NCBI RefSeq assembly: GCF_000789235.1 | Contig: NZ_KN525716.1 | Location: 1,371,674-1,403,673, forward strand | Direction of reading: 5' to 3' | Source of the DNA: Wocania ichthyoenteri Th78 | Lineage (GTDB): Bacteria > Bacteroidota > Bacteroidia > Flavobacteriales > Flavobacteriaceae | Length of the DNA stretch: 32,000 nucleotides | Part shown: in pieces, positions 6,769 through 31,682 of the stretch | How positions within the stretch are numbered: position 1 is the stretch's first letter | How the letters are laid out: each line of letters begins with the position of its first letter | Notes under the pieces: generated by a model | Databases searched by the model: none | What the model was told of the DNA's origin: nothing | Seen by the model: the letters and a program-made list of their open reading frames with translations, nothing else | Position numbers and translations under genes: made by a program

Positions 6769-12955
<6,187 letters not shown>

Positions 12956-27054: not shown

Positions 27055-27594
27055 TTAATTTGCACAGTTATCACCACATTTTTTATTTTTTTTATAATCC
27101 ATTATAGCACCTTTCCCTCCTTGTGTAATAGTACAACAATCTGATATTAATTTTTTTAATTTCACTCTGCCTCTTTGTATTTTAGATCGGACGGTTGTAT
27201 AATTTAAATTAAGTTTTTCGGCTATTTCTTTTTGTGAGAAATTTTCAATTTCCGATAAATTAATAATAGTGCGGTAATTTTCGGGTAATTGATTTACAAA
27301 TGGAGCAATACAATTGCTTAATTCATTAACTGTGTTTTTTTCTGATAATTCTTTTTGAAATTCGATAACCTCTATGTCTTCGGTAAACCGTTTTTTCTTT
27401 CGGTAATAATCTGTTATACTATTTTTTGCAATTGTGTACACCCAACTTTTAATATTTTTTACATTTTCATTTTTTGATGTGGATAGTTTGTAAAAAATTT
27501 CTTGAGTTAAATCTTCAGCATCTAATTGATTATTAATTCTTTTCCTGACATAAAGGAATAGAGGTTTATATAGTTGTTCTATTTGTTTTTCCAT
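27055..27594 (-). CDS. ECF-type sigma-70 family factor with Cys-rich C-terminal extension (SigZ/CorE-like layout)
   Basis: 179 aa. Region 2 reads DAEDLTQEIFYKL...WVYTIAKNSITDYYRKKKR. Region 4 reads LPENYRTIINLSEIENFSQKEIAEKLNLNYTTVRSKIQRGRVKLKKL. The tail SDCCTITQGGKGAIMDYKKNKKCGDNCAN contains CC and CxxxC. The start overlaps the MFS gene end by 29 nt. No anti-sigma gene is adjacent. Confidence 0.85.
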   Translation of the reverse strand: MEKQIEQLYKPLFLYVRKRINNQLDAEDLTQEIFYKLSTSKNENVKNIKSWVYTIAKNSITDYYRKKKRFTEDIEVIEFQKELSEKNTVNELSNCIAPFVNQLPENYRTIINLSEIENFSQKEIAEKLNLNYTTVRSKIQRGRVKLKKLISDCCTITQGGKGAIMDYKKNKKCGDNCAN

Positions 27595-28750
27595 TTTGAA
27601 TAATAAAATTAATAAATAAAGCAGTAATAAGAATTGTAAGAGCTAAGAATAAATAGTATTGACCAATATATTCTATTAATACGATGCCTAAAAAAGCTCC
27701 AAGTCCAGCTCCTAAATCCCACCAAGTGCTTACACTTGAAATAATTTGCAATGAATTATCGCTTTTTGTTTGCTGCTCAATTGCAATTAAAGGTGAAAAG
27801 GTAACTACTATAGCATTAGCCATAAAAGCAATAATAACACCCAATATAGTAAAGTTTATGGCGATTAAGAACATCGCTAGAATACATATAATTATTGAAA
27901 CACTAAACAATTTTAAGGACTCTATTTTTAAAGTAAGCATACCACTAATTAAAGATACACCAACCATTGCTATTCGTTTCAATAATAAGTAAGATGCTAC
28001 TAATATTAACAATTGTGGAGTGCTTATGGATGAATCGTTTAATAAGTTTGCAAGCACGACTACCAAAATACCGTCAATTGAAATTGCGAGAAAAGTAATT
28101 AATAAATTAAGTGTTGTAAACGAAAATGTTTGCTTAGTTTTTACCTTATTGGTTGGGGTGTGATTAAGATTAGATAAAGTGAAACTAAGAATTATAGCTA
28201 CTGAACTGATACTTGCTATAACAAATAATGTACTTTCAATACCAAAAGTGGAAATTAATATTGGACCAATGCATAACGCTACTAATGCTCCTAATGATTT
28301 AATACTTTGTGTTATTCCAAAAGTAAATCCAACATTGCTTTTTACTTTTGATGCATAATTCTGGGTTGAAATTTTTAAGCCAGAATAACTTAATCCCCAA
28401 ATAATTCTTGCCATAGCAAAGGTTATTAATCCTAATTTTAAGCCATAGACAAATGTGGTAATTACCGCAAAACAAGACGACCAAAGGAGTACCTTCTTCA
28501 TACCAATACTATTAATAATATTGGCAATCCAAGTGTTAGAGATTACTCTAACAAAGCGATTAATTGAGAGTAAAAAACCAACGCTTACTAGCGGAAGACC
28601 TAATCTTTCAGCATAAATTGGTAATACGGGATACAAAATAGCATCTCCAAGTCCTGCCAAAGCCATAATACCACTAGAAGTTAAAGCTCCCAAAAAATGG
28701 GAGCTTTTAGTAGTAGATATATCAATTTTTAATTTTCTACTTAACAACAA
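27566..28750 (-). CDS. MFS transporter (about 12 TM helices)
   Basis: 394-aa hydrophobic ORF with MFS-like loop motifs (INRFVRVISNTW). The only start that keeps TM1 is TTG at 28750 or 28747. That start overlaps the stop of the 59-aa CC-peptide ORF by 10 nt in another frame. Confidence 0.75.
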   Translation of the reverse strand: MLLSRKLKIDISTTKSSHFLGALTSSGIMALAGLGDAILYPVLPIYAERLGLPLVSVGFLLSINRFVRVISNTWIANIINSIGMKKVLLWSSCFAVITTFVYGLKLGLITFAMARIIWGLSYSGLKISTQNYASKVKSNVGFTFGITQSIKSLGALVALCIGPILISTFGIESTLFVIASISSVAIILSFTLSNLNHTPTNKVKTKQTFSFTTLNLLITFLAISIDGILVVVLANLLNDSSISTPQLLILVASYLLLKRIAMVGVSLISGMLTLKIESLKLFSVSIIICILAMFLIAINFTILGVIIAFMANAIVVTFSPLIAIEQQTKSDNSLQIISSVSTWWDLGAGLGAFLGIVLIEYIGQYYLFLALTILITALFINFIIQNGKTNRTTI

Positions 28751-28920
28751 CCTGTTTTTTCAGAATTCACTTCTTTAGATTCTGTTTTATCACAACAAGA
28801 GGAACCGTCTTCTGGTTGTTCACAACATGGTGTGTTTTGCTCTTTCACACTCGCAGTTGGTGTACAACATCCCGAGCTTTGTGTTGTTGTTTCTTCGGTA
28901 TTTAACTTACTTGTTTTCAT
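28741..28920 (-). CDS. Small Cys-pair-rich protein (59 aa, four CC doublets), absent from the supplied ORF track
   Basis: Hand translation of the minus strand gives MKTSKLNTEETTTQSSGCCTPTASVKEQNTPCCEQPEDGSSCCDKTESKEVNSEKTGCC*. The ATG is at 28920-28918 and an in-frame TAA lies 6 nt upstream. It sits 23 nt downstream of the 36-nt conserved ECF-type promoter block. The stop overlaps the MFS start. It is polar and acidic, with no TM segment or signal peptide. Confidence 0.65.
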   Translation of the reverse strand: MKTSKLNTEETTTQSSGCCTPTASVKEQNTPCCEQPEDGSSCCDKTESKEVNSEKTGCC

Positions 28921-28943: not shown

Positions 28944-28979
28944 TCACTTACTAAGACGAATAGTTGAAAAAATGATGCA
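28944..28979 (-). promoter_or_regulatory. ECF-type promoter copy A: TGCATC-N15-CGTCTTA-N3-AGTGA, upstream of the CC-peptide/MFS/sigma operon
   Basis: Minus-strand read: TGCATCATTTTTTCAACTATTCGTCTTAGTAAGTGA. It is identical to copy B at 29 of 36 positions with identical spacing. The -35-like element is at 28979-28974 and the -10-like CGTCTTA at 28958-28952. It begins 9 nt after the PIG-L stop codon. Confidence 0.65.
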
Positions 28980-28987
28980 TAAAATTC

Positions 28988-29710
28988 CTAAAGAATTAGA
29001 TTATCGGTTATTTTCTTTAGTGGGGGATAGTGATCTTCAAAAGCAATTTCAAAATGAACCTTATTTCCTATTTTTTCAATAACCCCTGTTTTTTCTACCA
29101 TTTCTTGATAGGTTTCGTAACACAGTAACGATTCTCTCATGGCAATAACATTATTCTTATTTAATGGTGTAATTACATCAATTAACTCACTCTCAGATAG
29201 TTTTAATCTTGGCCAACCATCTTTCATAAATGAAGGTGCTCCATTGTCTGGCATTGTAAAAAAAGCTAACCTTTTTAAATATTTTGCGCCATTATCTTTC
29301 ATTTCAAGAAACACTCTTTTTACTACAGCATAAGTAACTAAATGGTCGTGAAAACCACTACCTCCATGAACAGGATAGGTTATTACTATGTTGGGTTGTA
29401 TTCGTTCAATTTCTTTTTGAACGTCTCTTTCTATTATTCTTGGATCAAGTTCTTTTAACCGACTATCTGGGTAGTCTAATAGTGTAAATCCTGAAAAATG
29501 GAGTACTTTTTTTACATCAAGCATCTCGTTATGGCGGATGATTCCCATTTCCTCTATACTTAGATTTAGCTTATGCCTAACCTGGGTTGCGCCTCCTTTA
29601 GTTAGGGTGAGTAAATAAACGTCATTGCCATCATTTACTTGTTGATTTATTGCTCCAGCAGGCCCGAATGATTCATCATCGGGATGTGGAAATACATATA
29701 ATATTTTCAT
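28988..29710 (-). CDS. PIG-L/LmbE-family N-acetylglucosaminyl deacetylase or amidase (BshB/Bca-like)
   Basis: 240 aa with the N-terminal family hallmark MKILYVFPHPDDESFGPAG (the zinc-binding HPDDE motif) and a downstream HHDH-type region (GSGFHDHLVTY). It starts 17 nt after the flavoprotein gene on the same strand. Confidence 0.8.
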   Translation of the reverse strand: MKILYVFPHPDDESFGPAGAINQQVNDGNDVYLLTLTKGGATQVRHKLNLSIEEMGIIRHNEMLDVKKVLHFSGFTLLDYPDSRLKELDPRIIERDVQKEIERIQPNIVITYPVHGGSGFHDHLVTYAVVKRVFLEMKDNGAKYLKRLAFFTMPDNGAPSFMKDGWPRLKLSESELIDVITPLNKNNVIAMRESLLCYETYQEMVEKTGVIEKIGNKVHFEIAFEDHYPPLKKITDNLIL

Positions 29711-29727
29711 TTTTTTTCATTTTTAAT

Positions 29728-31005
29728 TTAACAACAACTTCCTTCACTCACGCTATCCGAGCTACAGACCCCTGTTTCTGGTAAGTTTAATTCTACTCTT
29801 TTTGCAGATTCAAAATCTCCATCTAAGTATGCCACAACGGATCGTACTTGCTCATACCCCGTAGCCATCAAAAATGTGGGAGCTCTTCCATAACTTTTAG
29901 AGCCAACTATGTAAAAGTCTTTTTCTGGATGTCTTAATTCTTTTTCACCGTGAGGACGTACTGTTCCACAGCTATGTGTATTGGGATCAATTAGTTCGGC
30001 TAAGTCAAAAACAGACTCCAATGAAGCGTCTAAATCGATTCTTACTTCACGGATCATATCTAAGTTAGGTCGCGAACCTGTATTGCTAATTATTTCATCA
30101 ATATTGGATATGGTCTCATTTTCTCCATTTAGCTCTCCATCTATTTGGATTCCATTTTTATTCACTGTTAATTTTAGAATATGAAAGTGCGTATAAACAT
30201 TCAATTTTTTACCATTTATCAATCCTTCAAGGCGTGCACCCAAAGCACCTCTTGCCTCGAATGCGTCATCTTCTTTTCCTCCATAAACAACTGAAAGATC
30301 TTTTTTTCGTAATACCCAGTTTATTTGTGTATTGGAATATTTCTTTTGAATATCTGCCAAGTCCAGTAAAACATTCATAGCAGAGTGTCCTCCTCCAACA
30401 ACCAGAATATTTTTATTCTTATAACGATTTAATAGATCTCCTTTAATATTAGGAATACCATAGAAAATATTATTTTTAATCTCTTGTTCTCCTTCTGCAA
30501 AGACTCCTCCAGATCCGATAGGATTGGGCTGATTCCAAGTGCCAGAGGAGTCAATTATGGCTTTTGCCTCATAATATTTCGTCTGATTGTTTTCAATTAC
30601 TTTAATTATAAACGGTTTGTTTTCTCTATTGGCTGTTTTCATTTTATCCAATCCTTTTCTTCCGATAGATACTACTTCTGTATTTAAATGTATATAGGGT
30701 TGAATTTGTGGATGTTGTGAAAGTGGATGGAAGTATTTATCTACCAATTCTTTTCCGGTTGGTAGACCTTCTTTATTGGGGATTTCCCAATTTGTTTGTA
30801 AAAGTAATTCTTCAGCAATTTTATCAATATTATATTTCCAAGGTGAAAATACTTTTATATGTTGCCAAGACAAGATATTTTGCCCAACGGAACTTCCTAA
30901 TTCAAACAAAATAAAAGGAATTTTTCTTTTGGCTAGGTGGGCTGCGGCAACCAGACCTATAGATCCACCACCAATAATAGCAATAGGTAATTTATTAATT
31001 TGCAT
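29728..31005 (-). CDS. Two-dinucleotide-binding-domain flavoprotein (FAD/NAD(P)H oxidoreductase, CzcO/ArsO/FMO-like) with C-terminal Cys-Cys tail
   Basis: 425 aa. FAD GxGxxG motif at IAIIGGGSIGLVAAAHL and a second Rossmann motif at ILVVGGGHSAMNVLLDL. The C-terminus reads ...LPETGVCSSDSVSEGSCC*. There is no CxxxxC next to the FAD motif. Confidence 0.7.
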   Translation of the reverse strand: MQINKLPIAIIGGGSIGLVAAAHLAKRKIPFILFELGSSVGQNILSWQHIKVFSPWKYNIDKIAEELLLQTNWEIPNKEGLPTGKELVDKYFHPLSQHPQIQPYIHLNTEVVSIGRKGLDKMKTANRENKPFIIKVIENNQTKYYEAKAIIDSSGTWNQPNPIGSGGVFAEGEQEIKNNIFYGIPNIKGDLLNRYKNKNILVVGGGHSAMNVLLDLADIQKKYSNTQINWVLRKKDLSVVYGGKEDDAFEARGALGARLEGLINGKKLNVYTHFHILKLTVNKNGIQIDGELNGENETISNIDEIISNTGSRPNLDMIREVRIDLDASLESVFDLAELIDPNTHSCGTVRPHGEKELRHPEKDFYIVGSKSYGRAPTFLMATGYEQVRSVVAYLDGDFESAKRVELNLPETGVCSSDSVSEGSCC

Positions 31006-31021
31006 TTGTTGTTGTTTTGAT

Positions 31022-31057
31022 TCACTCCATAAGACGAGTATTTCAAAAAAAGATGCA
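31022..31057 (-). promoter_or_regulatory. ECF-type promoter copy B: TGCATC-N15-CGTCTTA-N3-AGTGA, upstream of the flavoprotein/PIG-L operon
   Basis: Minus-strand read: TGCATCTTTTTTTGAAATACTCGTCTTATGGAGTGA. The -35-like element is at 31057-31052 and the -10-like element at 31036-31030. The block ends 16 nt upstream of the ATG at 31005. Confidence 0.65.
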
Positions 31058-31600: not shown

Positions 31601-31682
31601 TATTTCAATTTATTAAAATTATTTGTACATCATTTTAATTAAATTCCCTCTTAATGGGGAAAACCAAAGGAGAGAGTTATGT

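Follow-up and report, generated by a model that had tools for sequence, protein, structure and literature searches.

A predicted promoter motif associated with a SigZ-like sigma factor gene in Wocania ichthyoenteri and related Bacteroidota

Two similar blocks at a minus-strand gene cluster

The DNA analysed here (the window) is a 32,000-nucleotide stretch of the Wocania ichthyoenteri Th78 genome (assembly GCF_000789235.1, contig NZ_KN525716.1, forward-strand positions 1,371,674 to 1,403,673). Its subject is a pair of similar 36-nt blocks, A and B, each of which lies immediately upstream of a set of co-directional genes on the minus strand. A preliminary description of the sequence had interpreted the blocks as promoters that define a regulon of the extracytoplasmic function (ECF) type, and had put forward the sigma factor encoded at the end of the block A operon as their reader. 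Based on the comparative sequence analysis presented below, we consider it very likely that both blocks are ECF promoters read by this SigZ-like sigma factor. The features of the locus are collected in Table 1, together with other features of the window.

Table 1. Features of the block A/B locus and, in the last four rows, elsewhere in the window
Feature	Position	Strand	Evidence and remarks
DinB_2 protein	31600-31115	-	Pfam; same strand, directly upstream of block B
Block B	31022-31057	-	Predicted promoter; -35 TGCATC 31057-31052, T-tract 31051-31045, -10 CGTCTTA 31036-31030, AGTGA 31026-31022 (predicted start region); target is the flavoprotein-PIG-L operon
FAD/NAD(P)-binding oxidoreductase (flavoprotein), 425 aa	29728-31005	-	Pfam Pyr_redox_3
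PIG-L family deacetylase or amidase, 240 aa	28988-29710	-	Pfam PIG-L, 4e-27; in a predicted operon with the flavoprotein gene
Block A	28944-28979	-	Predicted internal promoter; -35 TGCATC 28979-28974, T-tract 28973-28967, -10 CGTCTTA 28958-28952, AGTGA 28948-28944; targets are the small Cys-rich peptide, MFS and sigma genes
59-aa peptide with four vicinal Cys-Cys pairs, C-terminal CC	28741-28920	-	Open reading frame; first gene after block A
MFS transporter, 394 aa	27566-28750	-	Pfam MFS_1; overlaps the stop codon of the small gene and the sigma start
SigZ-like ECF sigma factor, 179 aa	27055-27594	-	Pfam Sigma70_r2 (residues 5-69) and Sigma70_r4_2 (100-146)
1008-aa open reading frame	9929-12955	-	Phosphotransferase (APH), Peptidase_M23 and class-III aminotransferase domains
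SusC/SusD pair	17085-21699
Repeat protein, 1106 aa	21806-25126	+	FDxDNDGDLD-type repeats
tRNA gene	25199-25280	-	Sole Rfam match in the window

Re-reading of the sequence reproduced the blocks exactly as first described. On the minus strand copy A reads TGCATCATTTTTTCAACTATTCGTCTTAGTAAGTGA (28979 to 28944) and copy B reads TGCATCTTTTTTTGAAATACTCGTCTTATGGAGTGA (31057 to 31022), and the two are identical at 29 of 36 positions. The distances from the end of each block to the first ATG were re-measured as the same 23 nt for block A (ATG at 28920) and 16 nt for block B (ATG at 31005), and block A begins at the ninth base past the PIG-L stop codon (8 nt lie between, the stop ending at 28988). Only two perfect matches to the pattern TGCATC-N15-CGTCTTA occur in the window, namely blocks A and B, in agreement with the earlier statement that there is no other full copy. 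When up to two mismatches are allowed there are three matches, compared with a mean of 0.48 in 100 shuffled sequences, none of which reached three. The third match (31626-31653, plus strand) was judged to be a chance occurrence: it has two mismatches, including CCTC for CGTC, a terminator-like hairpin on the minus strand overlaps it, and the window has no gene downstream of it. An exhaustive search of the window for direct pairs of 36-mers with at least 29 identities returned nine pairs, eight of them inside the repeat-rich coding sequence at 21806-25126, leaving A and B as the sole intergenic pair. The stretch from the PIG-L stop codon to block A showed no terminator-like site, a scan for sigma-70-type promoters returned no alternative promoter and fewer matches than in shuffled sequence, and Rfam gave no match at either block. 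The DinB_2 gene upstream of block B has no motif of its own and its position is not conserved in relatives (one of them, L081, has transposase genes there).

The sigma factor is a 100% match to a Wocania ichthyoenteri protein and is composed of regions 2 and 4 only, as is characteristic of group ECF238. The NCBIfam SigZ models are its best family matches but score below their cut-offs (170.2 bits against 212, and 156.2 against 168.65; NF007215 / TIGR02959), and the protein is consequently SigZ-like and not a curated SigZ equivalog. It aligns with Bacillus subtilis SigZ at 36% identity (E 6e-41), with the linker cysteine and a CC motif in register. Its cysteines comprise Cys95, the single cysteine of the linker (..LSNCI..), the pair Cys153-Cys154 and others in the C-terminal tail; C95 and C154 are present in every one of 23 orthologues, C153 and C177 in almost every one. 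The invariance of C95 and C154 extends to SigZ, to the E. coli ECF24 member and to a sister clade described below. No anti-sigma domain was recognised by Pfam or NCBIfam among the neighbouring genes of the window or its relatives, although the MFS transporter and the small Cys-rich peptide might be regulatory.

Conservation of the motif around orthologous sigma genes

Phylogenetic footprinting, which the preliminary description had named as a check, was carried out on the window plus 14 loci (296 kb) that were picked solely because they encode an orthologous sigma factor. Four of these loci came from a genome scan with an alignment of sigma sequences and ten from exact look-ups of homologues. 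The degenerate peptide patterns used in the genome scan (DAEDLTQE and NYVTVRSK) matched generic ECF sigma factors, such that only 4 of the 80 loci retrieved were orthologous; the other 76 served as negative controls. The seed TGCATC-N15-CGTCT occurs 26 times in the 296 kb, where 0.015 occurrences are expected from first-order Markov simulations (maximum 1). All 26 sites have the same orientation as the gene that they precede, at positions from -4.5 to +3.4 kb relative to the sigma start. The same seed has no exact match around the 76 unrelated ECF sigma genes (1.09 Mb), and nothing was found near the sigma genes of six low-GC control loci.

The 26 sites give the consensus TGCATCATTTTT-N9-CGTCTTA, in which TGCATC and CGTCT are constant by definition of the seed. 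Beyond these, the A at +7 and the T-run are conserved in 85-96% of sites, the TTA after CGTC in about 73% and the GTGA that follows in 58-73%. Conservation is confined to the two blocks and the T-tract, with the rest of the spacer free to vary. The AGTGA that was originally included as an element of the block is present in both copies in the window, but relatives retain it only in part (50-73% per position over the 26 sites). When spacers of N14 to N17 were allowed with at most one mismatch, nearly all sites before regulon genes had N15, the exceptions being two N16 sites at the promoters of secreted-protein genes in L002 and L004. A relaxed scan at orthologous positions showed CGAC to be the only variant of the -10 element. 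The footprinting check was thus passed: in 14 of 14 loci orthologous genes are preceded by the motif, at a fixed spacing and in a fixed orientation. The gene order of flavoprotein, small Cys-rich peptide, MFS transporter and sigma factor recurs in Flavobacteriaceae, Fulvivirga, Saprospiraceae, Microscillaceae-type and other Bacteroidota contigs. The Bacteroidota -7 box, TAnnTTTG, was found between -120 and +70 at only 2 of the 26 sites, which bears out the earlier observation that the blocks differ from the housekeeping consensus of the phylum.

The genes behind the motif form a recurrent set. Flavoprotein orthologues have an exact site in 11 of 11 cases, with CGTC placed 27-29 nt upstream of the ATG, and the small-peptide genes have a site at the block A position in all 12 loci that contain such a gene, exact in seven and otherwise with a CGAC, CGCATC or AGCATC variant. 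Upstream of the operon of the sigma factor itself a site is present in 11 of 15 loci (the window and ten others), and in L002 and L004 it stands directly before the sigma gene. Relatives contain further sites, before a gene for a PatB/MalY-like (C-S-lyase-like) aminotransferase that is followed by an FMO-like gene, and before a gene for a secreted, Cys-rich protein of 160-175 aa that is followed by one for a DUF4405/DUF2271-like protein. The original claim that the blocks define the regulon therefore holds for its local part, but the two operons of the window do not exhaust the set of targets. In L002 the gene for the secreted Cys-rich protein runs in the opposite direction to the sigma gene, showing that the orientation of the motif follows the target gene and not the sigma gene. 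A separate observation concerns L086, a Saprospiraceae metagenome-assembled genome (5578-8598), in which an insertion of about 1.2 kb interrupts the flavoprotein gene and PIG-L is spread over three reading frames, making both apparent pseudogenes; the secreted Cys-rich gene is a fragment, yet all three promoter motifs are intact.

Metagenome contigs were also scanned with the exact pattern TGCATCATTTT-N10-CGTCTTA and no protein information, which returned 74 sites at 68 loci. About 34 of these sites precede regulon families: 12 the flavoprotein, seven the CC peptide, six the secreted Cys-rich protein, two the sigma factor and seven a new peptide, which is secreted, Cys-rich and 57 aa long. A SigZ-like sigma factor is encoded at 23 of the 68 loci and the flavoprotein only at seven more; at the remaining loci no gene is suitably placed, and the matches there appear to be due to chance. 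Taken with the motif at all 14 sigma-selected loci, the 23 loci that were found through the motif and encode a SigZ-like factor support the proposal that the adjoining ECF sigma factor is the probable reader.

The seven loci with the 57-aa peptide represent a sister clade, in which the sigma factor is approximately 40% identical to that of the window and the motif is located immediately downstream of the sigma gene. Since the same motif accompanies so divergent a sigma factor, it has been kept across a deep split in the sigma family. The clade is exemplified by L152 (560-5857; also L099, L109, L122 and L145), where the motif precedes the gene for the 57-aa peptide. The L152 locus lies between ArsR-ArsN1-DUF6428-ArsC-ACR3 and ArsR-MerTP-GDCCVxC genes, and in L099, L122 and L145 the sigma gene is preceded by genes for a Crp-like regulator and for a membrane protein of 187 aa with a C-terminal CC. 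A link to arsenic or mercury was taken as a lead only: the four loci that carry ACR3 have copies 94-100% identical and so amount to one lineage, and no ars or mer genes were found near the main-clade loci.

Predicted reading of the motif and alternative explanations

What the sequences show is that the motif is conserved at a fixed spacing and orientation and occurs together with the sigma gene; from this we infer the dependence on this sigma factor, the transcription start site and the type of signal, as follows. Region 4 of the sigma factor would read the -35 element TGCATC(A)TTT and region 2 the -10 element CGTC(TTA), which is separated from the hexamer by exactly 15 bp. The predicted start of transcription is some 7-9 nt past CGTC, within AGTGA or close to it, which would give leaders of about 20 nt from block B and about 27 nt from block A. 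Block B would drive the flavoprotein and PIG-L genes, and block A, as an internal promoter, those for the vicinal-cysteine peptide, the MFS transporter and the sigma factor. Because block A is predicted to drive the sigma gene, the sigma factor would amplify its own synthesis through positive feedback, and because there is no terminator between the operons, read-through from block B probably adds to transcription from block A. The 29-nt overlap of the MFS end with the sigma start (27566-27594 in the window) is kept in every locus with both genes (at 10001-10029 in L081-L083, L086, L087, L089 and L090), which suggests translational coupling of transporter and sigma factor. By analogy with CorE2, it is most likely that the cysteines of the sigma factor directly control its activity, through binding of a metal or metalloid or through oxidation or alkylation, because there is no recognisable anti-sigma gene and because the protein combines an invariant linker cysteine with a Cys-rich tail as in ECF238.

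Several properties of the blocks are those of ECF promoters. ECF sigma factors tolerate little departure from consensus in the -35 and -10 elements and require a spacer of fixed length (PMC6411747), and most of them transcribe their own operon (PMC3817407); here two blocks stand at a rigid distance across a variable spacer, the -10 element is of the CGTC type and a site is located upstream of the sigma factor's own transcription unit. A number of observations weigh against the proposed reading. The 'AAC' core (GGAAC or TGAAAC), a feature of the -35 element of most described ECF promoters, is missing, even though this core is common and not universal, as illustrated by the ECF18 promoter Pecf18_up1700 with its -35 element TGCATCC (Rhodius et al., 2013, supplementary table). 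The promoter predicted for ECF24 by Rhodius et al. is GGAAC-type and was at background with SigZ, B. subtilis SigZ is reported to be monocistronic and not to direct its own transcription (PMC4105308), and there is no experimental precedent inside the sigma factor's own group. In four of the 15 loci (L003, L084, L085 and L088) the sigma gene lacks a motif of its own and stands behind a strong terminator-like hairpin 3' of the small Cys-peptide gene (L003:7870-7900, L084:9900-9930, L085:9885-9915 and L088:9950-9980). In L003 a TAnnTTTG-type box (TATCTTTG) is found upstream of the sigma gene, whose expression may be housekeeping-driven. Because of these four loci, the predicted autoregulation is frequent (11 of 15) but not obligatory. 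Finally, a second, unlinked sigma factor of similar specificity is possible.

The last point leads to the alternative that survives best, although we regard it as unlikely: the blocks could be ECF-type promoters of another sigma factor encoded elsewhere, with the neighbouring SigZ-like gene merely one of its targets in a cascade. There is documented precedent for cascades from one sigma factor to another and for cross-talk between ECF groups (PMC3817407), TGCATC also serves as the -35 element of the ECF18 promoter cited above, and four of the 15 sigma genes are not preceded by the motif. However, the motif travels with the SigZ-like gene across loci of Flavobacteriales, Cytophagales, Saprospiraceae and Chitinophagales, as well as into the sister clade, at a sigma identity of only about 40%. 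The cluster contains no further conserved regulator gene at main-clade loci, and the motif is absent around the 76 other ECF genes, both of which favour the adjoining SigZ-like factor as the reader.

The blocks might instead be operators to which a repressor or activator binds, such as a protein that senses metals or redox state, with transcription by the housekeeping polymerase. The ArsR-family and Crp-like regulators near the sister-clade locus and the stress-related appearance of the regulon would suit such an arrangement, but it is very improbable given the structure of the element, which lacks dyad symmetry and consists of two unlike blocks at a fixed 15 bp on either side of a variable spacer, in strictly directional placement. 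A regulator of that kind is not conserved at main-clade loci, and there is no other promoter apparent for the housekeeping polymerase to use, TAnnTTTG being absent near 24 of 26 sites and sigma-70-type matches falling below those in shuffled sequence. Least probable of all, to the point that we give it little weight, is a structured RNA leader or other transcript-level element of the 5' untranslated region, for while the blocks are very close to start codons and the segment past CGTC (GTGAAT.AAAAA) is partly conserved before flavoprotein genes, RNAalifold predicted no base pairs (0) in the 26 aligned sites, there is no Rfam match, and conservation is strongest in the part predicted to lie upstream of the transcript.

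Regulon products and comparison with known systems

With the SigZ-like factor as the preferred reader of the motif, the predicted regulon has a recurrent core of a YpdA-like, CC-tailed flavoprotein (accompanied by PIG-L in the window), a CC peptide of 49-62 aa, the MFS transporter and the sigma factor, to which other loci add the C-S-lyase-like enzyme with its FMO-like partner and the secreted Cys-rich proteins. The flavoprotein is unusually well conserved, at 68-82% identity in orthologous loci across Bacteroidota orders (L001 and L081-L090), exceeding both the sigma factor and the MFS transporter. Two of its cysteines, C346 and C414, are invariant, and its C-terminal tail, of low complexity, contains one or two CC pairs and usually ends in CC; this flexible tail resembles those of MerA and the high-molecular-weight thioredoxin reductases. 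Names given to the flavoprotein in public sources are generic only or mutually inconsistent. Its NCBIfam matches to ArsO and YpdA are weak and far below the cut-offs, with YpdA (TIGR04018) second-best at 38.9 bits against 339.9. An AlphaFold2 model (pLDDT 73.8) has as its best fold match in the Protein Data Bank the bacillithiol disulfide reductase Bdr/YpdA, with a template modelling score of 0.45-0.56 and 16-18% identity, but the flavoprotein is longer by about 100 aa and has the CC tail. With sequence scores so far under the cut-offs and only a modest fold match, assignments as ArsO, YpdA or thioredoxin reductase were rejected.

The best NCBIfam matches of the PIG-L protein are BshB2 and Mca, both below their cut-offs, and its gene occurs in three of the 15 loci (the window, L081 and, as a pseudogene, L086) and is absent elsewhere. 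The 59-aa peptide has no Pfam or NCBIfam match and belongs to a family of 49-62 aa with the pattern MKT(R/N)K..GCC..CC..CC, which is conserved downstream of the motif. MFS orthologues at the same position are 48-77% identical.

The cysteine-centred nature of these products, together with the sigma factor's own cysteines, points to a thiol-directed stress response, the predicted stress being an oxidant, an electrophile, or a thiophilic metal or metalloid. The metal reading is put forward as a hypothesis, as the ars/mer island of the sister clade stems from one lineage and has no counterpart at the main-clade loci. More tentatively still, and with clearly less confidence than we have in the promoters themselves, the cluster may be a conserved Bacteroidota regulon under an anti-sigma-less, cysteine-sensing sigma factor, that is, a one-component detoxification system for thiophilic metals and metalloids (As(III), Sb(III), Hg or Cd) or for thiol-reactive compounds. 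On this view vicinal cysteine pairs would be the common design of all its products, with the CC peptide likened to a metallothionein and the MFS transporter acting as an exporter. If so, it would provide the first defined promoter and regulon for the long-orphan SigZ family. The element itself is conventional, being an ECF promoter pair with predicted positive feedback and of a well-known promoter type; to our knowledge, however, the promoter and regulon of this sigma subgroup have not been described experimentally. SigZ-type sigma factors are widespread, and the sharply defined candidate promoter and its recurrent targets would offer a direct handle on the family. The high conservation of the flavoprotein across orders suggests an important thiol-related activity in marine and soil Bacteroidota. 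The motif would also widen the range of known ECF -35 elements past those with an AAC core, and so be useful for the design of orthogonal promoters. Its main value, though, is as an entry point to an uncharacterised and highly conserved cysteine-rich regulon.

Elsewhere in the window, the combination of domains in the 1008-aa open reading frame is an unusual fusion. The 1106-aa repeat protein, which follows the SusC/SusD pair, is the source of all the other near-identical 36-mer direct repeats, and the tRNA gene is situated between it and a beta-lactamase/TPR gene downstream of the sigma gene.

Literature searches returned nothing relevant on TGCATC in connection with ECF sigma factors, on the motif strings or on ECF sigma factors and arsenic in Flavobacteria. 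Casas-Pastor et al. reportedly predicted promoter motifs for each ECF subgroup, and may already list this motif for ECF238. Promoters of the B. subtilis sigma-W/-M/-X type have CGTA or CGTC as their -10 element, and the blocks resemble them in their bipartite form and strict spacing, in a -10 element starting with CGT, in the T-run right after the -35 element and in their position before the sigma factor's own operon. With the sigma-W -35 consensus TGAAACnTTT (PMC6713349) they share T-36, G-35, C-31 and T-29 to T-27, the frame TG-NNN-C-N-TTT, but the central triplet is CAT in place of AAA, hence the lack of an AAC core. The spacer is 15 instead of 16-17 (by the same counting), the host belongs to the Bacteroidota and no anti-sigma gene was recognised. 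The Bacillus-type ECF resemblance noted in the preliminary description therefore stands for the CGT of the -10 element, the outer frame of sigma-W and the T-run, but not for a -35 element of the AAC type. With Pecf18_up1700 the blocks have only the six bases TGCATC in common, and its -10 region, sigma group and proteobacterial origin all differ. The Bacteroidota housekeeping promoter (TTTG / TAnnTTTG) is alike in phylum and in its short leader, but its conserved blocks are unrelated.

The sigma factor finds its closest parallels in SigZ, CorE and CorE2. The SigZ group, formerly ECF24, has been merged with the CorE-like ECF44 into ECF238 (PMC7826278, PMC4937300, PMC8999054), whose members have a short Cys-rich C-terminal extension, in some cases a linker cysteine, and no anti-sigma factors (PMC7826278). 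In CorE2 those cysteines mediate activation by Cd/Zn (PMC7826278, PMC4937300, PMC8999054). An essential CxC motif between regions 2 and 4.2 is confined to former ECF44 members (PMC4937300, PMC8999054), and the window sigma factor, with its single linker cysteine, differs in this respect from ECF44 and Myxococcus CorE. Its predicted targets (flavoprotein, CC peptide and MFS transporter) are likewise unlike the CorE targets in the cited papers. From SigZ, the prototype to which no function has been assigned (PMC4105308), it is set apart by its sub-threshold NCBIfam scores and by its operon and candidate regulon, SigZ being reportedly monocistronic, not self-transcribed and without a defined regulon. 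Its likeness to ECF238 as a whole resides in the 36% identity to SigZ, the aligned linker cysteine and CC motif and the Cys-rich extension that it has in common with SigZ, CorE and CorE2; that no anti-sigma domain was recognised among its neighbours would also fit the group.

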